64,000 nucleotides of DNA, taken from NCBI GenBank assembly GCA_005400705.1, contig GCA_005400705.1_4079.1; one strand, 5' to 3'. Source of the DNA: Escherichia coli (GTDB taxonomy: Bacteria > Pseudomonadota > Gammaproteobacteria > Enterobacterales > Enterobacteriaceae). Position numbers and translations under genes: made by a program. Numbering within the stretch: position 1 is the first letter of the stretch; each line of letters starts with the position of its first letter. Shown piece by piece: positions 12,122-26,369 of the stretch. The notes under the pieces are model-generated. The model had not been told where the DNA came from, did no database searches, and saw only the letters and a list, made by a program, of their open reading frames with translations.

Positions 12122-12134
12122 TAGAATATATTTA

Positions 12135-12170
12135 AAGTACTATCGCAAAAAATGATAGTACTTTATAATA
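12135..12170 (+). promoter_or_regulatory. Promoter variant with AGTACT in spacer (degenerate -35)
   Basis: aaagtactatcgcaaaaaatgatAGTACTttataatag; homologous to the promoter at 23762-23796, which has a TTGACA -35. Confidence 0.4.
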
Positions 12171-12206
12171 GTGTTTTATTCATACACAAACGATAAGGGC
12201 AACAGC

Positions 12207-12473
12207 ATGAATATTAAGTATTTTGCGACGCGTGAACAAGCTCGGATCGCCGCACGCCAGGACGGGGCAACGTTTAAAGATATGGGCGTACAATCGGAAC
12301 GTGGTAAACGTTGGGCCATTATAAAGCGTAGTACCGCCAGATCATTACAGTACTGGTTAGCGGCGTTAAAAAGTCCTGATAGTGTATCGCGTCGAGTGGT
12401 AGAAATAAAGCTCGACCGAAAGGGCAACCGCGTGACCGTGTACCGTACTAAAAAGATAGCAGTACTTGAATAA
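12207..12473 (+). CDS. Hypothetical protein; paralog of 23839-24234
   Basis: ATG 12207 (MNIKYFATREQARIAARQDGATFKDMG...DRKGNRVTVYRTKK) matches KFYATREAARIVAREEGAAFKDMG...DRKGNSVTVFSKRR. Confidence 0.65.
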   Translation: MNIKYFATREQARIAARQDGATFKDMGVQSERGKRWAIIKRSTARSLQYWLAALKSPDSVSRRVVEIKLDRKGNRVTVYRTKKIAVLE

Positions 12474-12540
12474 AAGTACTTGCATACTATGTTTAAAGGC
12501 GTATAATGTTTTACATCGAGAGCGGGAACACTTCCCGCCT
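12472..12540 (+). promoter_or_regulatory. PeSL-type cassette
   Basis: aaagtacTTGCATact, TATAAT 12502-12507, hairpin gcgggaa-cac-ttcccgc. Confidence 0.6.
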
Positions 12541-12559
12541 ATAACCTGGAGTAATAAAA

Positions 12560-12790
12560 ATGACTAATATGTATATGACTGAAGTTAAAACTGTAAAAGA
12601 TACTACCACGAATAAAACTACTTACTTACAGCGGATCTGTGGTGTCTGGCAACGTATCAGCAAAATAAAGTACTATAAATTGACATCACATGCTAACCGT
12701 TCGGATTCATTCAGTACTGAAATAAAAGGTAATAAAGTACACCAATACGGCACTTATTATTATTATAGCCTGGATGCGATTGCAGTATAA
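12560..12790 (+). CDS. Hypothetical Thr/Tyr-rich protein
   Basis: 76 aa ORF after PeSL and SD ggag. Confidence 0.6.
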   Translation: MTNMYMTEVKTVKDTTTNKTTYLQRICGVWQRISKIKYYKLTSHANRSDSFSTEIKGNKVHQYGTYYYYSLDAIAV

Positions 12791-13034
12791 GCAGTTTACA
12801 AATCTTTACAATTGCCGGTATTGACTTATTTTGTCAGTACTGGCATAATGTATTCATTGGCAGATAAGCCGTAGCCCATAGGGTGCGGGAGTGTATCTAT
12901 AGAAAAAGTAGTTTATTACAGTTACAATTGTGCACCCGGTGGGTTAGCTGTTGTCATGGGGTATATTATACCAGTACTGGATAGTGCTGTCAATACCTTT
13001 TTACTATTCAGTACTGAAAACTATTTTTAAAAAG

Positions 13035-13066
13035 TACTTGCAAACTATGTTTAAAGGCGTATAATG
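13035..13066 (+). promoter_or_regulatory. PeSL-type promoter driving a structured leader
   Basis: aaagtacTTGCAAact, TATAAT 13060-13065. Confidence 0.55.
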
Positions 13067-13070
13067 TTTT

Positions 13071-13150
13071 ACATCAGGACGGGGAACGAAATAAGTAACT
13101 TCCCGTTAAGTAGCCCAGGAGTAAGGCACACGAAAAACTCCCCTGATAAA
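13071..13150 (+). ncRNA. Conserved structured RNA element, copy 1 (candidate cis-regulatory leader or small RNA)
   Basis: caggacggggaacgaaataagtaacttcccgttaagtagcccaggagtaaggcacacgaaaaactcccctg; identical copy at 22916-22990, diverged copy about 16030-16110; two predicted stem-loops. Confidence 0.35.
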
Positions 13151-13155
13151 ATAGT

Positions 13156-13183
13156 TTGACAAATGTTTTTAAAAGCGTATAAT
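13156..13183 (+). promoter_or_regulatory. Second sigma70-like promoter after the structured element
   Basis: TTGACA 13156-13161, 16 nt, TATAAT 13178-13183. Confidence 0.5.
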
Positions 13184-13215
13184 ACTTACATCAACTACTG
13201 AATGAGGGTTACAAA

Positions 13216-13827
13216 ATGAAAACTATCACTACTACTACTTTCGTTATGGCTTTTTCTGAATTGAACGCAGAACAACAAACGTCAGCTATCGAACTGGTTC
13301 GGGATCGGGAACGTTCAAGCGGTGATGATTTCTTTTCTGAGTCAGTGATCGAGTACTATAAAGAAACAGTACTACCAGAATATGGAATTGATGACGCTGA
13401 TTTGCAATTCAGTGGTTTTTGGTCGCAGGGTGACGGTGCATCAATCAGTACTGACCACGTTGACGCTGTGAAGTTTTTACGCAAGATTAAAGCATTAACT
13501 AAGTATCGTTCTATCCGTCACCTGCTGAATGAAGATGATTTGGCGATGAGTGTAAAGCGTTCTCACTCCCACTACTCGCATGAAAACACTGTAAGCGGGT
13601 ACATTGAATCGGGGTACACTGATTTAACCGCAAAACAAGAAACGTTAGTTAATGAGCTTGAGGAACTACTCACTGAAACTATTCGTGAATTATCCCGCAA
13701 GTTGTACCGTGATTTAGAGAATGCATATGAGGATCAATTCACTACTGAAAACATTACGGCACTGATTGAGGGTAACGAATATCAATTCAATGTTATTGAT
13801 GGCGTAGTAGAATCTATCGAATATTAA
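13216..13827 (+). CDS. Hypothetical acidic protein
   Basis: 203 aa ORF; SGFWSQGDGASIS motif; family not recognised. Confidence 0.7.
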   Translation: MKTITTTTFVMAFSELNAEQQTSAIELVRDRERSSGDDFFSESVIEYYKETVLPEYGIDDADLQFSGFWSQGDGASISTDHVDAVKFLRKIKALTKYRSIRHLLNEDDLAMSVKRSHSHYSHENTVSGYIESGYTDLTAKQETLVNELEELLTETIRELSRKLYRDLENAYEDQFTTENITALIEGNEYQFNVIDGVVESIEY

Positions 13828-13844
13828 TTCAGTACTGAATCAAT

Positions 13845-13863
13845 GGCGGGAGTGGTTCCCGCC
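13845..13863 (+). promoter_or_regulatory. 5' stem-loop without adjacent promoter
   Basis: ggcggga-gtgg-ttcccgcc then SD aggag and ATG 13884. Confidence 0.45.
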
Positions 13864-13883
13864 TATAACCAGGAGTAAGCATC

Positions 13884-14117
13884 ATGATCGAACAAATTCA
13901 AACGACCACAAGCCGGAGCGGAACGAAAGTACATTACATCGCTGATACTGATAAAGGTGTACCCTATTGTGCTGTACACGTAAATACTGACGGTGACTAT
14001 TGGTTAACTGTATACGGGCGTTACTCGTTTGCTTTTAGTGCACATTGTAAGATCCTGGAAGTAGTGAAGCCTACCGGTAAGAATATCACGCCGGGAAAAT
14101 GTTTTACTAAGCACTAA
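13884..14117 (+). CDS. Hypothetical protein; paralog of 15039-15275
   Basis: 77 aa; shared GVPYCAVHVNT(D/E)G(D/N)YW(L/F)TVYG...PTGKNIT. Confidence 0.7.
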   Translation: MIEQIQTTTSRSGTKVHYIADTDKGVPYCAVHVNTDGDYWLTVYGRYSFAFSAHCKILEVVKPTGKNITPGKCFTKH

Positions 14118-14118
14118 A

Positions 14119-14185
14119 AAGTACTTGCATACTAAGTTTAAAAGCGTATAATACTTTATATCGAGGCGGGGGAATGGTTCCCGCC
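14119..14185 (+). promoter_or_regulatory. PeSL-type cassette
   Basis: aaagtacTTGCATact, TATAAT 14147-14152, hairpin ggcggggga-atgg-ttcccgcc. Confidence 0.6.
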
Positions 14186-14203
14186 TTTACTGAGGATTAT
14201 CTA

Positions 14204-14491
14204 ATGAGCAAAGTAATTAACTATACAGTACTAAGCAAGTCATTATCTATTAGCCAGTGCACCGATGGTTTTTGGCTGTACGATGAAACGCGTGGCATGA
14301 ATTTAGCTATGCGGGAGAAAACTGCTGAGGCGGCGTATTTACAAGCCCTGGAATACTACCAGGAACGTTTAAAGGAAGTAGAAAACAATTATCAAAATTT
14401 AAAAGAGAAAGTAGATAATTTCGTTTGTCAATTCGTTGACGATGACGAGGAAGACGGGCACTACTGCAACCGTTGCGGATCTTACAATTAA
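14204..14491 (+). CDS. Hypothetical protein with C-terminal Cys pair (HYCNRCGSYN)
   Basis: Track ORF 14174-14491 trimmed to ATG 14204 (MSKVINYTV); 95 aa. Confidence 0.6.
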   Translation: MSKVINYTVLSKSLSISQCTDGFWLYDETRGMNLAMREKTAEAAYLQALEYYQERLKEVENNYQNLKEKVDNFVCQFVDDDEEDGHYCNRCGSYN

Positions 14492-14554
14492 GTACTTGCA
14501 ATTAGTTTTCAGTACTGTATAATGGTTTACATCAAAGGGAGAAATGGTTCTCCC
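14490..14554 (+). promoter_or_regulatory. PeSL-type cassette
   Basis: agtacTTGCAAttagttttcAGTACTgTATAAT, hairpin gggagaa-atgg-ttctccc. Confidence 0.6.
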
Positions 14555-14573
14555 TGGTAATGAGGAAAATAAA

Positions 14574-14795
14574 ATGGCTAATATCACTACTCTTTCCCAA
14601 CTGGAAGCACTGGTTAAATCTATGCGGGAACATGCCGACAAAATCGGCGTACAAGATCCAGCCGTTTGCTTCTGCGACGAATTGAATGATGATACCCTGG
14701 TAATAGCAGAAGTCCAGGACGTTTCTAACTATTCCTCGCGTTACACTGGCGGCGTAGCAAATAAAGGTGACTTCTGTTTATACCTTACAAAATAA
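14574..14795 (+). CDS. Hypothetical protein
   Basis: ATG 14574 (MANITTLSQ) after SD gaggaaa; 73 aa. Confidence 0.65.
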   Translation: MANITTLSQLEALVKSMREHADKIGVQDPAVCFCDELNDDTLVIAEVQDVSNYSSRYTGGVANKGDFCLYLTK

Positions 14796-14796
14796 C

Positions 14797-14830
14797 AACG
14801 CGGGGAGATAATAACTCCCCGTTACTTTTT
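14797..14830 (+). terminator. Rho-independent terminator
   Basis: cggggag-ataataa-ctccccg followed by ttacttttt. Confidence 0.55.
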
Positions 14831-14959
14831 CAGTACTGAATCATTTAATAGACGGATCTCGGCACCCGGTGGGTTAGTGACTGTTTCGTCTTGATGTAGT
14901 AATTATGCCAGTACTGGATGCACTTGTCAACAATTATTTTTCAAATACTTTTTATTAAA

Positions 14960-15018
14960 ATACTTGCAATTAGTTTTTAAACGCGTATAATGTTTTGCAT
15001 AGGGGGAGCGGTTCCCCT
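14960..15018 (+). promoter_or_regulatory. PeSL-type cassette
   Basis: aatacTTGCAAttag, TATAAT 14986-14991, hairpin ggggagcggttcccc. Confidence 0.55.
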
Positions 15019-15038
15019 GGTAACTAAGGAATAATAAA

Positions 15039-15275
15039 ATGCTTGAACAAATCAAATCAACGTCTTCGAATGTAACGGGAACGGTAGCACACTTTACTAG
15101 TGATGAATCGCGGGGCGTTCCCTATTGTGCTGTACATGTAAACACTGAGGGTAACTACTGGTTTACGGTTTACGGTTCATATTCATTTGGACGGCCAGGG
15201 CATCAAAAAATTCTGGATAAAGTACAGCCAACGGGTAAAAATATCACTGCTGAAATGTTTTATAAAAAATCATAA
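15039..15275 (+). CDS. Hypothetical protein; paralog of 13884-14117
   Basis: 78 aa ORF. Confidence 0.7.
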   Translation: MLEQIKSTSSNVTGTVAHFTSDESRGVPYCAVHVNTEGNYWFTVYGSYSFGRPGHQKILDKVQPTGKNITAEMFYKKS

Positions 15276-15340
15276 AGTACTTGCAATTAGTTTTTAGTAC
15301 TGTATAATATTTTACATCGCAAGGGGGAGCGGTTCCCCCT
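15276..15340 (+). promoter_or_regulatory. PeSL-type cassette
   Basis: aagtacTTGCAAttagtttttAGTACTgTATAAT, hairpin gggggagcggttccccc. Confidence 0.6.
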
Positions 15341-15359
15341 GGTAACTAAGGATAATCAA

Positions 15360-15659
15360 ATGAAAATTGCAATCATCGCCCTGGCTTTATCTGTTTCCTC
15401 TTTCGCTGTTAATGCGTCATTAGATGTAAGTAGTGAAAAATTCATTCAGTGCACTGTTGCAATGACCGATGAAAGTACTGGCGAGATTGTTTTAAAGGAT
15501 TTAGAGATCCAGCCCGAAGCATTTAAAAACGGGCCGTTCCATGAAGAAGACGAAAAAGGTAGCACGACAATTTATTACGATGCAAGTACTAAACGCGGTT
15601 CGGTCACTGTTATGGATACTGAGAAAGTAACTCATACTGGCGTTATTAATTGCCGTTGA
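15360..15659 (+). CDS. Small secreted or periplasmic protein (predicted signal peptide)
   Basis: 99 aa; N-terminus MKIAIIALALSVSSFAVNA is signal-peptide-like. Confidence 0.65.
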   Translation: MKIAIIALALSVSSFAVNASLDVSSEKFIQCTVAMTDESTGEIVLKDLEIQPEAFKNGPFHEEDEKGSTTIYYDASTKRGSVTVMDTEKVTHTGVINCR

Positions 15660-15680
15660 TAGATACTACGGGGTAACATC

Positions 15681-15911
15681 ATGACTAAGCGAATTGTTTT
15701 ACTTAACGAAAGCAGTACTACACAACTACTTAACGCCGTGCATTATGATATTGAAACGAGCGTTAATCTTATCAGTACTGTAGTACTGTTGGACACTGGA
15801 AAGGTCGCCAATGATAAAGCGATTGCAGGTATACTAACGGATCTTGAGCCTGGTAGCAGTGCACCAATAACGTTAAATGGTAAAGTGTTTAATATTTTAC
15901 TCACTGATTAA
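15681..15911 (+). CDS. Hypothetical protein
   Basis: 76 aa ORF after short gap, followed by a terminator. Confidence 0.6.
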   Translation: MTKRIVLLNESSTTQLLNAVHYDIETSVNLISTVVLLDTGKVANDKAIAGILTDLEPGSSAPITLNGKVFNILLTD

Positions 15912-15916
15912 GTACA

Positions 15917-15945
15917 TAGCCCACCTGGTGGGCTTTTTTGTTTTT
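15917..15945 (+). terminator. Rho-independent terminator
   Basis: agcccacc-t-ggtgggct then ttttttgtttttg. Confidence 0.6.
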
Positions 15946-15992
15946 GTAGTATCGTAGTACTGAGATACTTTGAAAATAGTTTTAAAAAATAG

Positions 15993-16020
15993 TTGACATT
16001 ACCGCAGAAAAGCGTAGAAT
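15993..16020 (+). promoter_or_regulatory. Sigma70-like promoter
   Basis: TTGACA 15993-15998, 16 nt, TAGAAT 16015-16020. Confidence 0.5.
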
Positions 16021-16029
16021 GTATTACAT

Positions 16030-16110
16030 CAAGACGGGGAGCACTAAGTAGACCGCCAGTAAGTCGAACGAAAAACTGGACACGTCGAGAAAACTTTGAT
16101 ACACTAATAA
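16030..16110 (+). ncRNA. Diverged third copy of the structured leader element
   Basis: agacggggagcactaagtagaccgccagtaagtcgaacgaaaaactggacacg shares gacgggga, agtaag and acgaaaaact with the element at 13071-13150. Confidence 0.25.
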
Positions 16111-16143
16111 ACGTAAACTAAACTTTAATTGAGGATTTATAAA

Positions 16144-16626
16144 ATGGCTAATGTAAAATCATTCATCAAAGCACTGGTAGCAAATGAAACTAACGTCGCG
16201 GCAGAGATCCTGGCTGATCTGGATAACGATACCATGAAAGCGGTACGCAATAATTTTAACATCGCTTATAGTACTGCGAAAGAACTACAAGCAAATAAAG
16301 CGGCAGAAATTGAAGCGGCAAAGGCGGCCCGTGAAGCAGAACTACAAGCAACAATTGAAAGTATCCAGGCGGCAGTAGTTGGATTGGATCTGGAAGTAGT
16401 TACAGAGATGGCACAAAAAGCCCTGGCGGTTAAGTATGGGGAAGATAAGCCGGAATCTAAGCCTAAAAAATGGATTCAAAAACGTGTAGCGGTAGTACTG
16501 GACAACGGGGAAGAATATCTGATTCCGGTGCGTGGTAACTGCATTGCGGTAGTACTGGATGCGATTAACTCCAGTGGTATGACTCGCGAGGAATGGATCG
16601 AAGCTCATCGCAAAGTTGAAGCATAA
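16144..16626 (+). CDS. Hypothetical protein with N-terminal coiled-coil
   Basis: Track ORF trimmed to ATG 16144 (MANVKSF); Ala/Glu-rich heptad-like stretch AAEIEAAKAAREAELQATIESIQAA; C-terminal internal repeat VAVVLDN/IAVVLDA. Confidence 0.65.
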   Translation: MANVKSFIKALVANETNVAAEILADLDNDTMKAVRNNFNIAYSTAKELQANKAAEIEAAKAAREAELQATIESIQAAVVGLDLEVVTEMAQKALAVKYGEDKPESKPKKWIQKRVAVVLDNGEEYLIPVRGNCIAVVLDAINSSGMTREEWIEAHRKVEA

Positions 16627-16645
16627 CAATTAAAGTACTGAATCA

Positions 16646-16678
16646 CTAGCCCACCTTAAACGGTGGGCTTTTTTGTGT
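16646..16678 (+). terminator. Rho-independent terminator
   Basis: agcccacc-ttaaac-ggtgggct then ttttttgtgttt. Confidence 0.65.
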
Positions 16679-16824
16679 TTATCGTTTACCAGGCCACCAG
16701 CACCGCCTAGAAACGATTCTAACGCATTAAACTGATTATCTGATGCATTGCCCTAGCTGGTGGCGTTAAGGCTGTAAGAACGCGATTGAGAGCGTTTAAA
16801 GTATTTTGCAAAAAGTAATAAAAA

Positions 16825-16885
16825 GTACTTGCACGATTAAGAGATTAGCGTATAATGTTTTACATCGAGAGGGGGAAACGGTTCT
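16825..16885 (+). promoter_or_regulatory. PeSL-type cassette (imperfect hairpin)
   Basis: aaaagtacTTGCACgat, TATAAT 16851-16856, GC-rich gggggaaacggttctcc. Confidence 0.5.
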
Positions 16886-16911
16886 CCTTCCAAATCAAAG
16901 GAATTAAAACA

Positions 16912-17139
16912 ATGGCTATCGTAATCACTCGCGTAACTGGTACTACTGGCAATTCTTCTACTGTTGCTGTAATTACTAATAAGAAAGGTGCGGAATTGCA
17001 TTTTGCAATGGATAAATGGGCCGTTAATGAGTTCGGTCAGTGGGCAAGTGTAGCATACATTGAAACCTATCAAGTGCCGTCGATTAGTTTAACTGATTTG
17101 GGCGTTGAGCGTATCCTTTGCCTGGATGAATTAAATTAA
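16912..17139 (+). CDS. Hypothetical protein
   Basis: Track ORF 16855-17139 trimmed to ATG 16912 (MAIVITRV); 75 aa. Confidence 0.65.
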   Translation: MAIVITRVTGTTGNSSTVAVITNKKGAELHFAMDKWAVNEFGQWASVAYIETYQVPSISLTDLGVERILCLDELN

Positions 17140-17142
17140 AAA

Positions 17143-17206
17143 AGTACTTGCAAAGTAAATCAGATAAAGTATAATACATTACATCAAGGGGAGAAATGGT
17201 TCTCCC
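17143..17206 (+). promoter_or_regulatory. PeSL-type cassette
   Basis: aaagtacTTGCAAagt, TATAAT 17170-17175, hairpin gggagaa-atgg-ttctccc. Confidence 0.6.
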
Positions 17207-17225
17207 TGATAATGAGGAAACTAAT

Positions 17226-17369
17226 ATGAAAACTTGTCAATGTGGTAAAAAATCTATTACTGGTTTAAAGCGGGGCGTTGCACTTTGCCAGTACCATTAT
17301 AATTTACAAGTATGGGGTAAAGAATGGGCCGACCAGGTGGAAGCAGCAAAGAAAGCAAAAAGTAAGTAA
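17226..17369 (+). CDS. Small Cys-rich protein (possible zinc ribbon)
   Basis: 47 aa hand-translated (below track cutoff): MKTCQCGKKSITGLKRGVALCQYHYNLQVWGKEWADQVEAAKKAKSK; PeSL and SD upstream. Confidence 0.5.
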   Translation: MKTCQCGKKSITGLKRGVALCQYHYNLQVWGKEWADQVEAAKKAKSK

Positions 17370-17384
17370 AAATATTATCACAGT

Positions 17385-17420
17385 ACTATTGACATAGTTT
17401 GATAGTACTGGCATAATAGA
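17385..17420 (+). promoter_or_regulatory. Sigma70-like promoter with AGTACT flanking -35 and in spacer
   Basis: cAGTACTatTGACAtagtttgatAGTACTggCATAAT (TTGACA 17389-17394, CATAAT 17412-17417). Confidence 0.5.
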
Positions 17421-17450
17421 TTTTATCAAGACAACTAAGAGGAAATTAAA

Positions 17451-17795
17451 ATGGCTAATATCAACACTATCGCAAAACAAAATATCAACCTGTCTTCTGT
17501 TGAAGTTGTACATATTGCCGCTCGGCGTTGGTTCCAGGCTTCATATGGTAACACTTATTTCTCTTTAAGTGTAGACGTAGAAATTGATGGTAATTTTATT
17601 GAAGTAGTAAACGTGCCGTTCCAATATGGATACGGGGATCACTTTGACACTGTAGCAATGGAAGAATTTAGCAAGGTTATTAATATGGAAGATAAGGAGT
17701 TTACACGCGGATCGTACCTTTCACGTTTTTGCCGTGATAATAATATCACTGTTTACAGTTCGGTAACTGATGTTAAACGCAAAAAAGATCTTTAA
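17451..17795 (+). CDS. Hypothetical protein; paralog of 23420-23743
   Basis: 114 aa; shared C-terminus (VTDVKRKKDL vs YYDVKRKKDM) and internal GYG motifs. Confidence 0.7.
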   Translation: MANINTIAKQNINLSSVEVVHIAARRWFQASYGNTYFSLSVDVEIDGNFIEVVNVPFQYGYGDHFDTVAMEEFSKVINMEDKEFTRGSYLSRFCRDNNITVYSSVTDVKRKKDL

Positions 17796-17875
17796 TTCGC
17801 TTTACTTTATGCAGATACTTTGATATAGTGTCTGCATAGGGGAAAGAAATTAAATTAACTTAAGAGGAACGTATA

Positions 17876-18145
17876 ATGAAAAATATCAGTACTTTAATCG
17901 ATGCAGGTACACATGTTCGGCGGTCAATGGTTGCAACCAGTACTACAAAACAAGTAGCGAGCGGTTATCTTGTATTTGTGCACGATGGTAAACTCCTGGA
18001 ACGTTCAATCAATTTTGATGTTAAAAACAATTGCCGTTTTATTATCTTTCGCCGTGAACAATATAAGATCGACATTCCAGCGAAGCCCATTAGCGGTGCG
18101 TACAACGTGCAATCATTGTTTGAGCGTCAACCATACACCTATTAA
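17876..18145 (+). CDS. Hypothetical protein
   Basis: 89 aa ORF after SD aagagga. Confidence 0.6.
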   Translation: MKNISTLIDAGTHVRRSMVATSTTKQVASGYLVFVHDGKLLERSINFDVKNNCRFIIFRREQYKIDIPAKPISGAYNVQSLFERQPYTY

Positions 18146-18196
18146 TCAAAACATCGTTAGCGGTTGATTTAGGCCGCTTATATTGAGGATTATACC

Positions 18197-18469
18197 ATGA
18201 ACGTTAATCAAGTACTGAATGAGATCGAAAGCATCATTAAACCGATGAAGCGTACTGATGCTATGTTAACACCGGAAGAATGCCGCCTATATGAGCGTTA
18301 TAGCGTCGAACAAGTCCAGGCAATGGCTATGGCTACCACAGCCGTTAAACCGCCTGAGAATGCGTTACAGGACGTTACAGGGGATTATATCATCAATCCA
18401 GTACTAGGGAAGATGGCTGCAATCACCGAAGATCAACAAGACTACTTAAGCCAGTACTTAAAAGGTTAA
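18197..18469 (+). CDS. Hypothetical protein
   Basis: 90 aa ORF after SD tgagga. Confidence 0.6.
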   Translation: MNVNQVLNEIESIIKPMKRTDAMLTPEECRLYERYSVEQVQAMAMATTAVKPPENALQDVTGDYIINPVLGKMAAITEDQQDYLSQYLKG

Positions 18470-18474
18470 TTAAT

Positions 18475-18684
18475 ATGCTTACTGTACAGGATAAGATCGA
18501 CATCTTAAAGGTTAATATGTATGTGATTGATGCCGTACCTGGTAAAGTATTTGCATACGATGATAGTACTGTAAGCGATTTCTACTATAGCCAGGACGTG
18601 GGGGATCTTTCTGTACAGTCGGTTATTGAAAACGTAGTTAATGCAGCGTATGAGCATTTACTTTCAAATAGTACTTGCAATTAG
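18475..18684 (+). CDS. Hypothetical protein
   Basis: 69 aa ORF. Confidence 0.55.
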   Translation: MLTVQDKIDILKVNMYVIDAVPGKVFAYDDSTVSDFYYSQDVGDLSVQSVIENVVNAAYEHLLSNSTCN

Positions 18685-18733
18685 TTTTTAAACGCGTATA
18701 ATGTTTTACATGAAGGGGAGAAATGATTCTCCC
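18670..18733 (+). promoter_or_regulatory. PeSL-type cassette
   Basis: agtacTTGCAAttag, TATAAT 18697-18702, hairpin ggggagaa-atga-ttctcccc. Confidence 0.6.
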
Positions 18734-18753
18734 CACTAATTAAGGAATATGAA

Positions 18754-18900
18754 ATGAAAGCATCAAAAAAGAGTAATACCAAGAAAGCATGTTCACCTTT
18801 CGCTGGGGTATTCCCTTTACGTTTCGTTGATGAAGTGGTTTCCTACCCGCCGGGCCTTACTCCTGAGATGGTAGAAAGTTTGCGTAAATCTAAAAAATAG
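18754..18900 (+). CDS. Small basic protein
   Basis: 48 aa hand-translated: MKASKKSNTKKACSPFAGVFPLRFVDEVVSYPPGLTPEMVESLRKSKK; PeSL and SD aaggaa upstream. Confidence 0.5.
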   Translation: MKASKKSNTKKACSPFAGVFPLRFVDEVVSYPPGLTPEMVESLRKSKK

Positions 18901-18963
18901 TACTTGCAATTAGTTTTCAGTACTGTATAATGTTTTACATGAAGGGGAGAAATGATTCTCCCC
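18899..18963 (+). promoter_or_regulatory. PeSL-type cassette
   Basis: tacTTGCAAttagttttcAGTACTgTATAAT, hairpin ggggagaa-atga-ttctcccc. Confidence 0.6.
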
Positions 18964-18981
18964 AATAACAGGAGAAACAAA

Positions 18982-19134
18982 ATGAAACAATACAACGCTC
19001 GGTTTGATGTTACTATCGGTAACGGCAAAGGTCAATTCTCTTTCAGTACTCGCAAAAGTTATACAGAAAACTTCCTGCGTAATTGTGCACTGACCGCCGC
19101 TCAAATTAAACATTACTTTCAGGCTAAAAAATGA
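18982..19134 (+). CDS. Small protein
   Basis: ATG 18982 (MKQYNARFD) after SD caggag; 50 aa. Confidence 0.55.
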   Translation: MKQYNARFDVTIGNGKGQFSFSTRKSYTENFLRNCALTAAQIKHYFQAKK

Positions 19135-19220
19135 AATCATTAGCTTACTATAGTTCGGCCCTGGTCGGTACATTGATCGCGGCATTGTTAGTAACCTATC
19201 TATTCTTTATGGTGATTTAA
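19131..19220 (+). CDS. Small hydrophobic (single transmembrane) peptide
   Basis: 29 aa MKSLAYYSSALVGTLIAALLVTYLFFMVI; ATG overlaps previous stop (ATGA). Confidence 0.4.
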   Translation: MKSLAYYSSALVGTLIAALLVTYLFFMVI

Positions 19221-19364
19221 ATGAATCCAACAGGTTTAAATTATAAAAGTTGTTCGGCGTTTACGAAAGCAAATAAAGCGAATGCACGTAAAGCGAAAGT
19301 ACAGGAATACATCAAGCAAGGCATGACGCGAAAGGCGGCGATTCTAAAAGCTAAAAATAAATGA
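19221..19364 (+). CDS. Small basic peptide
   Basis: 47 aa MNPTGLNYKSCSAFTKANKANARKAKVQEYIKQGMTRKAAILKAKNK; ATG adjacent to previous stop. Confidence 0.4.
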   Translation: MNPTGLNYKSCSAFTKANKANARKAKVQEYIKQGMTRKAAILKAKNK

Positions 19365-19373
19365 AAAAAGTGG

Positions 19374-19401
19374 TTGACTCCGGTCAGCCATTTTGCTATT
19401 A
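19374..19401 (+). promoter_or_regulatory. Promoter inside the repeated 100 bp element (copy 1)
   Basis: TTGACT 19374-19379, 16 nt, TATTAT 19396-19401; followed by agcccacagggtgcataagtgtatc. Confidence 0.45.
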
Positions 19402-19489
19402 TATATTCATTGAGAGATAGCTCACTAGCCCACAGGGTGCATAAGTGTATCTATTATATAAGTATTGAGTACTGAAAACTATTTTTAAA

Positions 19490-19554
19490 AAGTACTTGCA
19501 AACTATCTCAATTGGCGTATAATGTTTTACATCGCAAGGGGAAACGGTTTCCCC
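19490..19554 (+). promoter_or_regulatory. PeSL-type cassette
   Basis: aaagtacTTGCAAact, TATAAT 19518-19523, hairpin ggggaaac-g-gtttcccc. Confidence 0.6.
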
Positions 19555-19574
19555 TGGTAATAAGGAAACGAATC

Positions 19575-19916
19575 ATGACTATCTCAATTGCTCAATCTAA
19601 CTTTGAAAACGAAATCATCGCCCAGGCACTGCGTTTAAATGATGGTCGGGCCGAAATTAATTACGGTTTCAATTCAGGCGGTTGCGAAAAATATCAGTAC
19701 TTTGTAACGGCTGATGGCGGTGTCCTGGGGATCAATACAGTTATTGTAAACATTCAGAAAATTAATTTCAATGATCCAGAAGATAGCCAGTTTTACATCA
19801 CGGGCGTGAACGTGAACTATGAGGATGATTATCTAACTGATGATCACACTGGCGAGAAGTTAGAAAGTGCATACGGTGAAGATGATTATCAGTCCGGTCC
19901 AGAAGATTTTGAATAA
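19575..19916 (+). CDS. Hypothetical protein
   Basis: Track ORF 19512-19916 trimmed to ATG 19575 (MTISIAQ); 113 aa. Confidence 0.65.
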   Translation: MTISIAQSNFENEIIAQALRLNDGRAEINYGFNSGGCEKYQYFVTADGGVLGINTVIVNIQKINFNDPEDSQFYITGVNVNYEDDYLTDDHTGEKLESAYGEDDYQSGPEDFE

Positions 19917-19927
19917 TATTAAAAAAT

Positions 19928-19990
19928 AGTTTGACAATAGATTATAGTACTGTATAATAAGTTACATCAAGGGGAGAAATGATTCTCCCC
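19928..19990 (+). promoter_or_regulatory. PeSL-type cassette with TTGACA -35
   Basis: tagTTTGACAatagattatAGTACTgTATAAT, hairpin ggggagaa-atga-ttctcccc. Confidence 0.6.
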
Positions 19991-20010
19991 ACTAACAAAG
20001 AGAAAACAAA

Positions 20011-20223
20011 ATGGCTAATATCTGCACTGTACTGAAAAATGCAAAACAAGTTTTATTTTCTGATCATGAAAATTTCAACAAGGATATTACGGGCGTTCGG
20101 AATATCAAAGATGTAAAAAGTGTTATGGGTATCTATTGCAATATGAAACGTGTTGGTACGTTCGGCGACAAAGTACTATACCAGGCAGGGGATTATAACT
20201 TTACATTAACCATTATCAATTAA
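20011..20223 (+). CDS. Hypothetical protein
   Basis: 70 aa ORF (MANICTVLKN). Confidence 0.65.
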   Translation: MANICTVLKNAKQVLFSDHENFNKDITGVRNIKDVKSVMGIYCNMKRVGTFGDKVLYQAGDYNFTLTIIN

Positions 20224-20237
20224 AATATATTACCAGT

Positions 20238-20272
20238 ACTATTAACAATGATTGATAGTACTGGCATAATAA
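20238..20272 (+). promoter_or_regulatory. Promoter variant
   Basis: ccAGTACTaTTAACAatgattgatAGTACTggCATAAT. Confidence 0.4.
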
Positions 20273-20314
20273 CTTTTATCAACAGTAGTTAACTTAACAA
20301 AAGAGAGAAACAAA

Positions 20315-20458
20315 ATGATCGCACTAGATTCATTCATCGACGCAGTACTGGCAAAAACTGGCGAGGATCTGACCGCAGAACAATACGCGATGATCGAACA
20401 ATGTCAGCAAAACGGTAAATCGGTGAAAGATACTGTTAAGATTATCCGCAAGATGTAA
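20315..20458 (+). CDS. Small acidic protein
   Basis: 47 aa hand-translated MIALDSFIDAVLAKTGEDLTAEQYAMIEQCQQNGKSVKDTVKIIRKM; SD aagagag. Confidence 0.45.
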   Translation: MIALDSFIDAVLAKTGEDLTAEQYAMIEQCQQNGKSVKDTVKIIRKM

Positions 20459-20461
20459 GAT

Positions 20462-20494
20462 TATAGCCCACTGGTTAACGCTGGTGGGCTATAA
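20462..20494 (+). other. Long hairpin (10 bp stem) without a T-run
   Basis: tatagcccac-tggttaacgctg-gtgggctata; contains GCTGGTGG. Confidence 0.4.
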
Positions 20495-20563
20495 TTCATT
20501 ACCCTATACAATGCCAGTACTCAACCGTTTATCTCGTTAGAATGCGTTACAGGACGTTTACCA

Positions 20564-20761
20564 ATGATTAGCATGAAATCAGTACAAAAACAAATAGAAA
20601 CATTATCAAAAATTAAACGTAAACAGTACTCGTTAGAATATACAATCAATGGTAACTATCATCTAATGAAAGAGAATAATTTTATCGTCATTGATGAATC
20701 ATTGCAAGTTATTAGTATAGTACTGAAAGCATTAATCAATGACAGAAAAAAATTAAAATAA
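20564..20761 (+). CDS. Hypothetical protein
   Basis: 65 aa ORF. Confidence 0.5.
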   Translation: MISMKSVQKQIETLSKIKRKQYSLEYTINGNYHLMKENNFIVIDESLQVISIVLKALINDRKKLK

Positions 20762-20763
20762 TC

Positions 20764-20796
20764 TATTGACAATATCCTCCAGTACTGGCATAATAC
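20764..20796 (+). promoter_or_regulatory. Sigma70-like promoter
   Basis: TTGACA 20766-20771, 17 nt spacer with ccAGTACTgg, CATAAT 20789-20794; followed by about 290 bp of ORF-free leader. Confidence 0.5.
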
Positions 20797-20859
20797 TTAC
20801 ATCAAGACGAGAACGTCACCAACCCATAGGGTGCACAAATGTAACTATATAATATCGAT

Positions 20860-20950
20860 CAATAAATGATCAAAAAAGTACTGGATCAATTTAGCATAAG
20901 GCGTATAATTCTGATCAATTCTTGATCAAAGGCAATATACGCAGTTGAAT
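20860..20950. repeat. GATC / tGATCAa cluster
   Basis: Five GATC sites within about 85 bp (cgatcaataaatgatcaa...ggatcaat...ctgatcaattcttgatcaa). Confidence 0.55.
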
Positions 20951-21090
20951 TTATATAGACAGTACAAAGGCGTTACTATCCGTGGTAATGCTGGTGGATA
21001 TGTAGTATCATATGGTTTGAATAAGATAAACACTAGTAGTATTATTGTAGCATTACAGTACTATAGTATTTTTATAATGAGGTTAAAATA

Positions 21091-21348
21091 ATGGCAGTAG
21101 GATACGCGAAAGACGGGGCCGAACAAGACGAGATTCATGCAGTGATTCAGGCCGCCGTTAACCACGCTAGAAAGCAAATTAACGCACAAAGAGAATCACT
21201 GGTACATTGCCTCGACTGCGGCGATAAAATTCCTGAGAATCGACGCCAGGCCGTTATAGGGTGCATGTATTGTATTACTTGCCAGGAGGATCATGATAGT
21301 ACTTTTAAAAGAGATCCGCGTAATTGTTGGCATAGATCTATGAGATAA
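21091..21348 (+). CDS. TraR/DksA-family C4 zinc-finger protein
   Basis: 85 aa; CLDCGDKIPENRRQAVIGCMYCITC fits CxxCG-x2-IP-x2-R...CxxC of the TraR/DksA zinc finger. Confidence 0.65.
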   Translation: MAVGYAKDGAEQDEIHAVIQAAVNHARKQINAQRESLVHCLDCGDKIPENRRQAVIGCMYCITCQEDHDSTFKRDPRNCWHRSMR

Positions 21349-21352
21349 AAAG

Positions 21353-21386
21353 TAATTGACAGTACTGAAAGATAGTGTATAATGTT
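21353..21386 (+). promoter_or_regulatory. Sigma70-like promoter
   Basis: aaTTGACAgtactgaaagatagtgTATAATgttttatatc. Confidence 0.5.
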
Positions 21387-21412
21387 TTATATCTTAACTG
21401 AGGATAGAAATC

Positions 21413-21769
21413 ATGGGAATACAACATATCACGCGTACTACTGACAATGGCGAGATCACTGGTTATCAAGTACAGGGCAAAGTAGCACAATTGCAGTACT
21501 GGTTTGTTAAACGTGGAATCATTGCACCGGATCTTGATTATGACCGTGTAGCGTTTATTGATTCTCTTTATGTTGATCCTGATAGTCGGGGCAATGGTGA
21601 AGGTAACGAATTAATGAATGCCTTTATCGATGCCGCCGATGATTCAGATTGTATCATCTTAGAATGCGATACGGGAGAAGATAACGCCTTTAATCTTAAA
21701 GAATGGTACGAAGGTTTCGGATTCGAGGTATTGATAGATAGTGAATATCCTATCATGATTTTATCATAG
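21413..21769 (+). CDS. Small GNAT-like acetyltransferase (putative)
   Basis: 118 aa; LYVDPDSRGNGEGNELMNAF resembles GNAT motif A (V-x-P-x2-RG-x-G-x-G). Confidence 0.45.
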   Translation: MGIQHITRTTDNGEITGYQVQGKVAQLQYWFVKRGIIAPDLDYDRVAFIDSLYVDPDSRGNGEGNELMNAFIDAADDSDCIILECDTGEDNAFNLKEWYEGFGFEVLIDSEYPIMILS

Positions 21770-21830
21770 TACTTGCATTTAGTTTTCAGTACTGTTATAG
21801 TACTTGCATCAAGGGGAAACATCTTCCCCT
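21768..21830 (+). promoter_or_regulatory. PeSL-type cassette with weak -10
   Basis: tagtacTTGCATttagttttcAGTACTgttatag, hairpin ggggaaac-atc-ttcccc. Confidence 0.45.
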
Positions 21831-21847
21831 ACTAAGAGGAAATAAAA

Positions 21848-22036
21848 ATGGAAAACTTATCAAGTATTTTAGTACAAGATGATTTCGGTAATCCTGGAAG
21901 TGCTATCATTGTTCGGGGTAATAAAGCAACGTTTGTTATTGCTGGTGGACCCGTACAGCGTAGCATTAAAAATAATGCTGTTACCATTAATAATGTACGC
22001 TATCGCTTAGATAAAGAATTGATTCATAAACTGTAA
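21848..22036 (+). CDS. Hypothetical protein
   Basis: 62 aa ORF after SD agagga. Confidence 0.6.
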   Translation: MENLSSILVQDDFGNPGSAIIVRGNKATFVIAGGPVQRSIKNNAVTINNVRYRLDKELIHKL

Positions 22037-22039
22037 AAA

Positions 22040-22104
22040 AGTACTGGACAATAGATTATAGTACTGTATAATAAGTTACATGAAGGGGAGAAATGATTCT
22101 CCCC
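22040..22104 (+). promoter_or_regulatory. PeSL-type cassette
   Basis: agtacTGGACAatagattatAGTACTgTATAAT, hairpin ggggagaa-atga-ttctcccc. Confidence 0.55.
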
Positions 22105-22122
22105 AGTACTGAGGAAAGAAAA

Positions 22123-22335
22123 ATGCAAGGTCAACTAATCGTTCGTAAATGGTCTGATACTAACGCTAAACCGTGGGATGTACAATACATCGGCCCCAAT
22201 GGTGAATCCAGATATCAACCAGGTGTAACGCATAGTACTGAGCAATTCGCCGCCGCTCATCGTGAACGTCTGTTACAATCAATGCAGCAAGGTTCCGGTG
22301 AAAAATTCATTCAGGATCATTGGCTGAAAGATTAA
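22123..22335 (+). CDS. Hypothetical protein
   Basis: ATG 22123 (MQGQLIVRK) after SD gaggaaag; 70 aa. Confidence 0.65.
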   Translation: MQGQLIVRKWSDTNAKPWDVQYIGPNGESRYQPGVTHSTEQFAAAHRERLLQSMQQGSGEKFIQDHWLKD

Positions 22336-22337
22336 AA

Positions 22338-22401
22338 AGTACTTGCACAGTACTGAATAAAGTGTATAATGTTTTATATCGAGAGGGGAATAGTTCCCCT
22401 C
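22338..22401 (+). promoter_or_regulatory. PeSL-type cassette
   Basis: aagtacTTGCACAGTACTGaataaagtgTATAAT, hairpin gaggggaa-tag-ttcccctc. Confidence 0.6.
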
Positions 22402-22421
22402 CTAACAAAAAGGAAAGTATA

Positions 22422-22595
22422 ATGATCCAAGTAGAATTATCAGTACTGAAAGATCTATTTTATCGGTTAGGTACTAATGGCGAGTATCCTAAAAGTGATA
22501 CCGCAAAACTTTTTGTATCACTCGACTTATGGCAACGCGAACAATTAGTAATGTCGTGGCGTAAAGGTAAAGCAGATCGCGAGGTGAAAGCATGA
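22422..22595 (+). CDS. Small protein
   Basis: ATG 22422 (MIQVELSVL) after SD aaggaa; 57 aa. Confidence 0.55.
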   Translation: MIQVELSVLKDLFYRLGTNGEYPKSDTAKLFVSLDLWQREQLVMSWRKGKADREVKA

Positions 22596-22741
22596 AAGAA
22601 TTCTTATTTGAAGTAGTGTTTCAAGGTGTCGGTAATAACCAACTGATTCGATCAAGTGGTTATAATGTTAACCAGGCATGGAATAACATTAAACAAATGT
22701 ACCCTAACGCTATCACCTATCGCAACCCGAAAGAAGTTTAA
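22592..22741 (+). CDS. Small protein
   Basis: 49 aa hand-translated MKEFLFEVVFQGVGNNQLIRSSGYNVNQAWNNIKQMYPNAITYRNPKEV; ATGA overlap with previous stop. Confidence 0.45.
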   Translation: MKEFLFEVVFQGVGNNQLIRSSGYNVNQAWNNIKQMYPNAITYRNPKEV

Positions 22742-22758
22742 AAATAATTGAAAAAGGG

Positions 22759-22787
22759 ATTGACTCCGGTCAGTCCCTTTGCTATTA
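22759..22787 (+). promoter_or_regulatory. Promoter inside the repeated 100 bp element (copy 2)
   Basis: gggaTTGACTccggtcagtccctttgcTATTAT; -35 sits in near-palindrome gggattgac/gtcagtccc. Confidence 0.5.
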
Positions 22788-22874
22788 TATACGCATAGAA
22801 ACAAATCAGCCCACCGGGTGCATAAATGTATCTATTGTTTGCTGGTGGCTAGTACTGAAAACTATTTTTAAAAA

Positions 22875-22906
22875 GTACTTGCATTGTACTTAGAATCAAG
22901 TATAAT
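22875..22906 (+). promoter_or_regulatory. PeSL-type promoter driving structured leader (copy 2)
   Basis: aaagtacTTGCATtgtacttagaatcaagTATAAT. Confidence 0.55.
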
Positions 22907-22915
22907 GTTTTACAT

Positions 22916-22990
22916 CAGGACGGGGAACGAAATAAGTAACTTCCCGTTAAGTAGCCCAGGAGTAAGGCACACGAAAAACTCCCCTGATAA
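22916..22990 (+). ncRNA. Conserved structured RNA element, copy 2
   Basis: Identical over about 90 bp to 13071-13160. Confidence 0.35.
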
Positions 22991-22996
22991 AATAGT

Positions 22997-23024
22997 TTGA
23001 CAATAGAAAGTAAACGAGTATAAT
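22997..23024 (+). promoter_or_regulatory. Second promoter after the structured element
   Basis: TTGACA 22997-23002, 16 nt, TATAAT 23019-23024. Confidence 0.5.
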
Positions 23025-23057
23025 ACTTACATCAACCACTGATAAGGAAACATTAAA

Positions 23058-23333
23058 ATGCGGATTCTACTGACAGCTAACGAAATCGAACAAGTACTGA
23101 CTACTAACCTGGAACAATGGAAACGTGATGCAGATATCCAGGCGGTTCAATGGCTTAACGATAAGTTAACGCCGGATGACTTAAGCAAGATTGTAGATCC
23201 TCAATTCTACGAAGATATCCACGACACCGCGTTAAGCGTCGAGGATGTACTTGATAAGCACTACATTGATACTGATTTACAGGTTTACGGTCGTAAAAAC
23301 TTTATCACTATCCACGACATTTACAATAATTAA
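23058..23333 (+). CDS. Hypothetical acidic protein
   Basis: 91 aa ORF after SD aaggaaa. Confidence 0.65.
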   Translation: MRILLTANEIEQVLTTNLEQWKRDADIQAVQWLNDKLTPDDLSKIVDPQFYEDIHDTALSVEDVLDKHYIDTDLQVYGRKNFITIHDIYNN

Positions 23334-23398
23334 GTATTGACAAAGTATCTTAGTACTGTATAATAGTTTACATCAAGTGAGGGGAAACGGTTCCCCTC
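23334..23398 (+). promoter_or_regulatory. PeSL-type cassette (tattgacaaagta class)
   Basis: gTATTGACAAAGTAtcttAGTACTgTATAAT, hairpin gaggggaaac-g-gttcccctc. Confidence 0.6.
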
Positions 23399-23419
23399 CT
23401 AACAAAGAGAGAAATAAAA

Positions 23420-23743
23420 ATGGCTATGATCCTTACCCAGAAAGTAGAACTGAAAATTGTAACCTCCTTTGACATTAAAGTTAATCGCTGGACTGATCGG
23501 AACGGCAATACTTACCACTCTTGCTACGTGTCTGCATTGATTGGTGATCGTTGGGAAGACCTGGGACACGAAACTTTTACATACGGTTACGGTACGCAAG
23601 GCGAATACACGGGCTTGGAGATCATTAAAGAAACCGTTATAGGTTTCAACCCGAAAGAAAAAGTTATTCACCGCATCGAAAAAGAGATTAACAAAGAAAT
23701 AACAGTTCGCTACTACGATGTAAAACGTAAGAAAGACATGTAA
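23420..23743 (+). CDS. Hypothetical protein; paralog of 17451-17795
   Basis: 107 aa ORF. Confidence 0.7.
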   Translation: MAMILTQKVELKIVTSFDIKVNRWTDRNGNTYHSCYVSALIGDRWEDLGHETFTYGYGTQGEYTGLEIIKETVIGFNPKEKVIHRIEKEINKEITVRYYDVKRKKDM

Positions 23744-23761
23744 TAGAATCCATTTAAAGTA

Positions 23762-23796
23762 CTATTTGACATTACACAGATAGTACTTTATAATAG
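23762..23796 (+). promoter_or_regulatory. Sigma70-like promoter (homolog of 12135-12170)
   Basis: aaAGTACTaTTTGACAttacacagatAGTACTtTATAAT. Confidence 0.55.
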
Positions 23797-23838
23797 ACTC
23801 TAGCTTGTAGTACTAACTTAACTAATAGGATGTATACC

Positions 23839-24234
23839 ATGATTACTAAATTCTACGCTACCCGTGAAGCTGCCCGTATTGTTGCACGCGAGGAAGGAGC
23901 AGCATTTAAAGACATGGGCAAAGATGCACCGAAAGGCCAACGCTGGGCCGTACAGTTCAAAGAGATCTCTGATATTGTGAATTCACCGGAGCCAGTACTG
24001 ACAGCAGCAGAACAGAAGAAAGCTGATGAACTGTCAGCAGTTCTTAACGCTCAAGATGACTTTATCGCGGGTTCTGATATTAAAGTTTCCGTAAATTCGA
24101 ATGCATGGACTCACGCGGATCATCTGGCTAACTTGAAGCGTCCAAGTGTACTGATTCGCAACCAACGAGAGATCCGCCACGACCGCAAGGGAAACAGTGT
24201 TACTGTATTCAGTAAACGCCGCCAGGTTATCTAA
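23839..24234 (+). CDS. Hypothetical protein; paralog of 12207-12473 with central insertion
   Basis: ATG 23839 (MITKFYATREAARIV...); 131 aa. Confidence 0.65.
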   Translation: MITKFYATREAARIVAREEGAAFKDMGKDAPKGQRWAVQFKEISDIVNSPEPVLTAAEQKKADELSAVLNAQDDFIAGSDIKVSVNSNAWTHADHLANLKRPSVLIRNQREIRHDRKGNSVTVFSKRRQVI

Positions 24235-24256
24235 TAACTTGCAGTACTAACAACAC

Positions 24257-24284: not shown

Positions 24285-24298
24285 TAGGATAAACTAAA

Positions 24299-26367: not shown

Positions 26368-26369
26368 AA

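Follow-up and report, generated by a model that had tools for sequence, protein, structure and literature searches.

Repeated promoter-hairpin modules and the probable shuffling of early gene cassettes in an Asteriusvirus jumbo coliphage

The window analysed here is a 64,000-nucleotide stretch of contig GCA_005400705.1_4079.1, from an Escherichia coli assembly (GCA_005400705.1), and our subject is a block of small genes within it at 9690-29680, in which a promoter-leader module is repeated many times. Megablast of positions 12000-24500 gave matches to 124 phage records, the best being to Escherichia phages SHEFM2K, phAPEC6, CRJP21, Ecwhy_1 and PBECO4 and to other members of Asteriusvirus. The window can therefore be assigned by its sequence matches to that genus (the PBECO4/121Q/phAPEC6 group), that is to a Rak2-like jumbo myovirus of approximately 350 kb. 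The matches to relatives display 91-96% identity with a query coverage of 43-84%, broken into 5-14 pieces, and the region is thus conserved in sequence but mosaic in content. An assembly artefact is ruled out, as the same architecture with differing cassette content occurs in over 50 independent genomes.

Position 1 of phage fEgEco12 aligns to position 9690 of the window and the end of its 20,993-bp direct terminal repeat aligns to approximately 29680. The linear ends and the repeat of fEgEco12 were confirmed by restriction digests (PMC13070987) and terminal repeats of about 20-21 kb are also known for Sharanji, vB_Ec-M-J and G17 (PMC13070987, PMC11895373, PMC6563267). On the basis of this homology the block, termed early in the original prediction, corresponds to the terminal repeat. 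RNA sequencing of PA5oct, a related jumbo phage, revealed high transcription at the first time point for the majority of genes in its long terminal repeat (PMC7318152), so the label is a reasonable one and early expression in the present phage may reasonably be inferred. By comparison with other terminally repetitious phages the repeat is probably the first DNA into the cell. In phage T5 the terminal repeat is the first part to enter the cell, and strong host-type promoters there drive small pre-early and early genes that serve host takeover. T5 is, however, an unrelated phage, and nothing here points to a two-step transfer of DNA.

The block carries roughly 55 small orphan open reading frames (ORFans), and most of the genes lack a Pfam family. 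The few with recognisable domains encode a DksA/TraR-type zinc finger (21091-21348), a GNAT acetyltransferase (21413-21769) and a protein with a weak protein-kinase-like match (25158-25742), for which host-takeover functions are plausible. Scans of the whole window gave no Rfam family above threshold and no tRNA. The modules, cassette genes and terminator-like hairpins for which coordinates are given below are all on the plus strand.

Repeat finding revealed families of 23-24 copies within 10-30 kb. A pattern scan (TTGACA or TTGCAA, a spacer of 16-17 nt, then TATAAT) identified 48 predicted sigma70-type promoters on the plus strand of the block and few on the minus strand. These 48 sites match the consensus at 10-12 of 12 positions, eight of them perfectly, and most are preceded by TTTAAAAAGTAC. 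The promoter is part of a module of 60-100 nt consisting of an A-rich tract, the near-consensus promoter, a conserved start region ACATCGAG, a GC-rich hairpin of 7-10 bp, a Shine-Dalgarno sequence and the ATG. The commonest form is TTTAAAAAGTAC-TTGCAA-N16-TATAAT-GTTTTACATCGAGA-hairpin-N8-15-AAGGAA-N6-8-ATG. A representative full module at 25868-25964 comprises the A-tract, AGTAC-TTGCAT, a 16-nt spacer, TATAAT, TTTTATATCGAGA, the hairpin GGGGGAAATGGTTCTCCC, AAGGAA and ATG. The similarity between modules extends beyond the -35 and -10 hexamers to spacers, hairpin loops and leaders, with up to 89-100% identity. Nearly every small gene of the block thus appears to be an independent expression cassette headed by one module, presumed to be active as a promoter. 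A longer leader of 192 nt with two promoters (repeat family D12) occurs at 13010-13201, preceding the gene at 13216, and at 22851-23042, preceding an unrelated gene at 23058, where phAPEC6 carries an insertion; the two copies are 90% identical. The original prediction had described scattered duplicates. These repeats are real but were understated, the whole block holding the 48 promoter-leader copies in addition to the 192-nt pair.

Asteriusvirus genomes carry between 9 and 34 modules each, with fewer in Salmonella phage Munch, Erwinia phage Hallingskeid and K64-1. Klebsiella phage fENko-Kae01 also has the module, in fewer copies, inside its terminal repeat. In five modules (14544, 17196, 18952, 22093 and 25927) an ATG in the hairpin loop shares its reading frame with the gene start that lies 30-33 nt further on, which leads ORF finders to artefactual products beginning MVLPGNEENKM or MILPNNRRNKM; the true starts are probably the downstream ATGs that follow the Shine-Dalgarno sequence.

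In 24 leaders the 7-10-bp GC-rich hairpin, of the type GGGGAGAA..TTCTCCCC, is followed by a Shine-Dalgarno sequence. An RNAalifold treatment of a MAFFT leader alignment misaligned the hairpins and gave a poor consensus (-3.3 kcal/mol), and was replaced by folding of each sequence. Folding energies then range from -10.6 to -15.9 kcal/mol (mean -13.3), with a mean z of -4.1 against shuffled sequences. There are 21 distinct hairpin sequences among the 24 and the stems display compensating changes, one position being GC in 13, AU in seven and GU in four, another GC in 21 and CG in three. If transcription starts 7 nt after the -10 box, as assumed here, then the hairpin begins 0-7 nt, mostly 4-7 nt, past the start. 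The hairpin may protect the 5' end of the mRNA or act in attenuation.

The homologous regions of six relatives (SHEFM2K, phAPEC6, CRJP21, Ecwhy_1, PBECO4 and fEgEco12) were compared with the window by chaining high-identity matches. Within 20 kb there are 22 event records, each of them either a replacement or a stretch of sequence that one side of the comparison, a relative or the window, has in addition. Twenty-three of the 35 distinct boundaries fall strictly inside module zones, which make up 26% of the block (binomial P ~9e-7), and five more are no more than 2 nt from such a zone. Eight events are flanked by a repeated module of 20-107 nt, and these flanking repeats are stronger evidence than the position of the boundaries.

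Six of the eight were aligned three ways, left copy and right copy against the single module, and in each a hybrid module is found at the junction. To one side of the crossover, which lies within 14-60 nt of perfect identity, the single module agrees with the left copy, and to the other side with the right. The modules at 24548-24606 and 24824-24883 were reported as near-identical in the original prediction, and indeed some 50 nt are identical, from TTGACAGTACTCAA through the Shine-Dalgarno sequence, before the genes at 24607 and 24884. They flank a dispensable gene of 72 amino acids (24607-24825) that is absent from SHEFM2K and PBECO4, where the single module is that of the left copy as far as TTGACAGTACTCAA and thereafter that of the right, a crossover in the -35 region. 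Two promoter-hairpin modules of 89% identity (18664-18756 and 18893-18984, together spanning 18664-18984) flank a small cassette; CRJP21 has one hybrid module and lacks 18739-18895, the crossover lying in 40 nt of identity that run from the -10 box to the hairpin inclusive. In the other four cases it is the window that carries the single module. At 23320-23426, where CRJP21, Ecwhy_1, PBECO4 and fEgEco12 have two modules flanking an extra gene, the crossover falls between the -35 and -10 regions. At 20221-20283 all six relatives have two copies around approximately 199 extra nt, the crossover is within the module and the deletion is therefore the window's own. At 11798-11877 PBECO4 has two copies flanking an extra gene, with a crossover from the -35 region through the hairpin, and at 25899-25967, which overlaps the representative module at 25868-25964 and where Ecwhy_1 and fEgEco12 carry an extra gene, the crossover is in the stretch from Shine-Dalgarno sequence to ATG. 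Since the crossovers occupy differing parts of the module, homology-dependent exchange fits whereas a fixed site does not.

The repeats, the paralogy described below, the hybrid junctions and the mosaicism are direct observations, and we consider it likely that the cassettes of the early region have been gained, lost and swapped by recombination between non-allelic modules. Cassette shuffling through repeated promoter elements, as originally proposed, is supported by the concentration of boundaries, the 20-107-nt repeats and the hybrid modules. The host RNA polymerase would transcribe the early end region from the module promoters. The phage recombination or replication machinery, presumably the enzyme system responsible, would cross over between non-allelic modules, which is possible because dozens of them share long identical stretches, and the copies taking part could belong to one genome, to concatemers or to relatives that infect the cell together. 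Whole genes would be deleted, inserted, replaced or duplicated, each product still being correctly expressed.

Copy-choice or replication slippage between direct repeats, rather than strand exchange, would give the same products, and the loss of sequence between short direct repeats separated by a few hundred bp is classic for slippage. This process leaves unexplained both the replacement of a cassette by unrelated sequence and the observation that the nearest relative switches cassette by cassette, which needs exchange between different genomes. At 16901-17133 the nearest relative is phAPEC6, with 100% identity where four others have 89%. Two cassettes further along, at 18976-19359, it is fEgEco12 (98%, compared with 89-90% for SHEFM2K and phAPEC6), and at 22415-22745 it is SHEFM2K (97%, compared with 84.5% for phAPEC6). 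We therefore regard slippage as an unlikely explanation.

Several observations weigh against parts of the account preferred here. Boundaries between genes are partly expected from selection alone and their position by itself is weak evidence, since an event that disrupted a gene would not survive in any case. Some junctions have little or no flanking homology, just 7 nt (AAGTACT) at 14490 and none at 22036 or at 15652/15917, and the right boundary of the slot at 17451 lies inside coding sequence. The leader hairpins lack a T-run, so that a terminator role is not evident from the sequence, and they are not significantly more stable when folded in the sense than in the antisense orientation (P = 0.06), a comparison meant to tell a role in RNA from one in DNA. 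The first two of these points would suit functional convergence, with modules alike simply as strong sigma70 promoters with good leaders, illegitimate recombination occurring anywhere and selection keeping the events that fall between genes. Consensus promoters are expected to look alike and, as nearly all the intergenic space of the block is module, "between genes" and "in a module" are inseparable by position. Convergence does not, however, lead one to expect eight events with flanking repeats of 20-107 nt, hybrid modules that cross over within 14-60 nt of perfect identity, or a likeness that includes spacers, hairpin loops and leaders. It is accordingly judged improbable, and recombination between modules is retained as the preferred explanation.

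Could a dedicated, integron-like system be at work, in which the GGGG..CCCC hairpin or the palindrome AGTACT is the target of a recombinase or nuclease? The comparison of 13829-14206 with SHEFM2K 7651-8050 displays a promoter-less leader (TTCAGTACTGnnnCAATGG-hairpin-Shine-Dalgarno) and a promoter-bearing leader in opposite order around a replaced gene. The hairpin is the junction element shared by these swapped leaders, which would be in keeping with such an enzyme, as would the junction located exactly at AAGTACT, the placement of AGTACT beside the module hexamers and its abundance and conservation. The same idea was raised by Arbiol et al. for comparable phage hairpins (PMC2839356). On the other hand, crossovers are spread over the -35 region, the stretch from -10 to hairpin and that from Shine-Dalgarno sequence to ATG, unlike the work of a site-specific enzyme; AGTACT is equally common within genes far from junctions; and no recombinase was found, though none was searched for. 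We consider a dedicated system very unlikely. Integrons themselves resemble the block (PMC2839356), since in both small single-gene cassettes that can be exchanged stand in an array and an element able to form a hairpin marks each boundary. They differ in that every cassette of the window has its own promoter and the point of recombination is not fixed; no integrase or attC-type site is evident, although integrases were not searched for systematically.

The palindrome (consensus CAGTACTG) deserves separate mention. The whole window contains 278 AGTACT sites against 19.3 ± 4.6 expected, approximately 14-fold. In 1-30 kb AGTACT is the most numerous over-represented hexamer, with 195 sites, and by ratio is second to the overlapping GTACTG. 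Sites are dense in 4000-30300, absent from 30300-35000 and 38000-44000, and of moderate density in 44000-64000, and they recur every ~150 bp or so through the terminal repeat and the neighbouring small-gene arrays. Inside ORFs there are 183 of the 278, in all three frames. AGTACT is found in the modules as well, directly beside the -35 hexamer in 25 of them and beside the -10 hexamer in 17 of the 48. Orthologous sites are conserved at 87-93%, compared with 73-79% for all hexamers. The six Asteriusvirus relatives have the same density, which the rV5-like locus of UPEC06 does not, and a literature search on AGTACT in phages found nothing relevant. One speculative proposal, to which we would give a small chance, is that a protein, and not passive homology alone, organises the cassette array. 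AGTACT, which has fixed positions relative to the -35 and -10 hexamers of most modules, would then be the target of a dedicated phage factor, one that either silences every early promoter simultaneously or initiates the exchanges by nicking or binding DNA. If so, the terminal repeat would be a purpose-built, regulated exchanger of gene cassettes.

Three pairs of paralogs had been proposed in the block, and each aligns across the whole proteins rather than over short low-complexity segments and falls into one PHROG family. The genes at 12207-12473 (88 amino acids) and 23839-24234 (131 amino acids), pair 1, belong to PHROG 8127 and share 34% identity over both conserved ends, with an insertion of about 45 residues in the longer copy (BLASTP E 6e-17). 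Pair 2, at 13884-14117 (77 amino acids) and 15039-15275 (78 amino acids) and assigned to PHROG 9227, is 57% identical over the full length (E 6e-33), and pair 3, at 17451-17795 (114 amino acids) and 23420-23743 (107 amino acids), of PHROG 6246, is 30% identical across 109 residues (E 4e-10). No Pfam family was found for any of the six proteins.

The gene at 13884, with a hairpin and Shine-Dalgarno sequence upstream but no promoter, is a cassette of this phage only; there is no ortholog above 67% identity among 50,697 phage records, and in the relatives its slot holds a different gene, itself a paralog of the gene at 11843. The slot at 17451 is likewise polymorphic, four relatives having there a 35%-identical member of PHROG 6246. 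The partners at 15039 and 23420 are kept in all relatives. As the two slots vary between phages, two of the three pairs involve slots under exchange.

Pair 1 is different. All six relatives have both copies, at 97-99% identity for the gene at 12207 and 85-89% for that at 23839, each with its special promoter (12119-12171 and 23741-23796). The duplicated promoter proposed for these two genes proved to be real and unique to them, and somewhat longer than first described. A first shared block, TAATAGAATnnATTTAAAGTACTAT, covers 25 nt (12119-12143 and 23741-23765) and is identical except at two free positions; a second, GATAGTACTTTATAATAG, is identical at 18 of 18 positions (12154-12171 and 23779-23796). 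The matches expected in shuffles of the window are 0.00 and 0.29, respectively, and no further copy of the first block is present in the window. In both copies that block starts at the final codon and stop of the preceding gene, and the two preceding genes are unrelated. Together the blocks form an inverted repeat, AGTACTAT...ATAGTACT, that brackets the -35 hexamer and the spacer, whilst the -35 core and the entire leader from -10 to ATG differ between the copies. A leader that has diverged beside identical promoter blocks argues for constraint or conversion acting on a regulatory site and not for recent movement.

Pair 1 is thus best described as an old duplication of stop codon, promoter and gene in which a special promoter/operator appears to have been kept, and the other two pairs as each including a slot that seems still to be exchanging. 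A recent tandem duplication of promoter and gene is ruled out for all three by amino acid identities of 30-57%, and for pair 1 also by its fixation throughout the genus. The notion of duplicated promoter-plus-gene modules therefore holds in part: pair 1 does share a promoter, the other two pairs do not and none is recent. The six genes are members of small ORFan families that sit in cassettes.

The closest known counterpart is the promoter-early stem-loop (PeSL) of the T4-type phages RB49/phi1, T4/PST and KVP40/nt-1 (Arbiol et al. 2010, PMC2839356; Comeau et al. 2014, PMC4122927). A PeSL combines a sigma70-like early promoter, an AT-rich upstream tract, a GGGG..CCCC stem-loop and a Shine-Dalgarno sequence, and is located between ORFans in hyperplastic regions; PeSLs mediate insertion, deletion and replacement via hybrid elements, and mini-circles have been detected by inverse PCR (PMC2839356, PMC4122927). 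The window modules have the same AT-rich tract, strong sigma70-like promoter, GGGG..CCCC stem-loop and Shine-Dalgarno sequence. They too cluster in an ORFan-rich variable region, with the 22 structural differences noted above, and insertions, deletions and replacements between close relatives are again bounded by the elements with a hybrid at the junction. RB49 PeSLs, read beside the homologue of a window gene, are of the form AAAAAGTAGTTGACA...GGGGGTA..TACCCCCATCGAAACG...GGAG and AAAAAGTAGTTGACA...GGGGGTAgtaataTACCCCCATCGAAACG...AAGGAG. The RB49 sequences AAAAAGTAGTTGACA and CATCGAAA resemble the window modules, and an upstream AAAAAGTA-N-TTG motif and a CATCGA start region are common to both. 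All the features that define a PeSL at the sequence level are present in the window.

There are differences also. The RB49 hairpin overlaps the -10 box whereas that of the window mostly follows it, in the presumed transcript and not between or over the hexamers. The RB49 hairpins likewise lack a T-run, yet attenuation was reported by the authors. Furthermore, the window derives from the Asteriusvirus jumbo lineage and not from Straboviridae, its array fills a long direct terminal repeat and AGTACT palindromes are built into its modules. The array is of a kind already known; what is new is the phage lineage and the location in the genome, within the long terminal repeat. A search of open-access literature found none linking PeSLs with Asteriusvirus or other jumbo phages.

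Among jumbo phages, PA5oct (Lood et al. 2020, PMC7318152) and CBB (PMC5259590) have a long direct terminal repeat with short genes and promoters of TTGAC/TATAAT type. The papers list promoters and paralogs but do not describe repeated promoter-hairpin modules as recombination sites. Lambdoid morons are, like the cassettes, single genes inserted between others with a promoter of their own, and a terminator, but they have no conserved flanking linkers and are thought to arrive by illegitimate recombination (PMC2839356). In UPEC06 (Vequintavirinae) a homologue of the 13884 gene lies behind a promoter, a hairpin GCGGGAACACTTCCCGC identical to two hairpins of the window, and a Shine-Dalgarno sequence. 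The region 930-1900 of this unrelated coliphage of ~143 kb carries a promoter, ACAT, a GC hairpin and a Shine-Dalgarno sequence before small genes. These similarities suggest that the leader type is common to several coliphage lineages. Because rV5-like phages share the leader, including one identical hairpin, and RB49 PeSLs share the A-tract/-35 and CATCGA motifs, such leaders may even be a common currency for gene exchange among unrelated coliphages.

If the preferred explanation, recombination between non-allelic modules, is correct then shuffling of PeSL-type regulatory cassettes extends from T4-type phages to jumbo coliphages of ~350 kb, in which it is located in the long terminal repeat. 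It would explain why Asteriusvirus genomes, otherwise 91-96% identical, differ mainly in this block, and the roughly 55 ORFans would represent an exchangeable pool of probable host-takeover or anti-defence genes. The modules could also provide natural landing pads for engineering, as early expression, with the neighbours left undisturbed, is to be expected of a foreign gene inserted between two modules.

Elements with the look of an intrinsic terminator are confined in the block to eight. Four are composite terminator-promoters, at 19367-19402, 22753-22788, 25754-25789 and 28199-28234, in which a 12-bp hairpin (AAAGGGATTGAC/GTCAGTCCCTTT at 22753) encloses the -35 hexamer and is followed by TATTAT. 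The other four are ordinary hairpins that also divide the block, at 14800-14822, 15918-15934, 16648-16669 and, following the second gene of pair 1, 24257-24275. A promoter of the form TTGACT/TTGACA...TATTAT/CATAAT is associated with a box in six copies, at 12800-12935, 19352-19487, 20745-20880, 22738-22873, 25739-25874 and 28184-28319, and in a possible, less clear seventh at 10865-11000. The almost invariant box, CCCAYNGGGTGCAnAARTGTATC, is placed about 25-30 nt past the promoter, no ORF comes after it and the next promoter soon follows. Across the seven promoters it gave a weak hairpin only, with no covariation and no Rfam match. The site may specify a short non-coding transcript or bind a protein.

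At 10435-10595, some 750-900 nt inside the predicted left genome end and upstream of the first early genes, an 8-bp motif, RGAYGGCT (for example GGATGGCT AGACGGCT AAACGGCT), is repeated periodically in approximately 20 units that may form a binding array or an element resembling an origin. On the minus strand at 516-5332, shortly ahead of the predicted genome end, are four tandem paralogous genes of 375-390 amino acids with RCC1-like beta-propeller repeats; two copies, when aligned, have a near-identical N-terminus MLPFVRMFDYGN. Tightly packed arrays of genes of ~60-80 amino acids, with overlapping stops and starts and no promoters between them, occupy 5430-9416 and resume from ~29.8 kb. In the SHEFM2K annotation they are repeated members of PHROG 11711 and PHROG 4148, and they represent a different, promoter-less expansion of gene families that flanks the terminal repeat.

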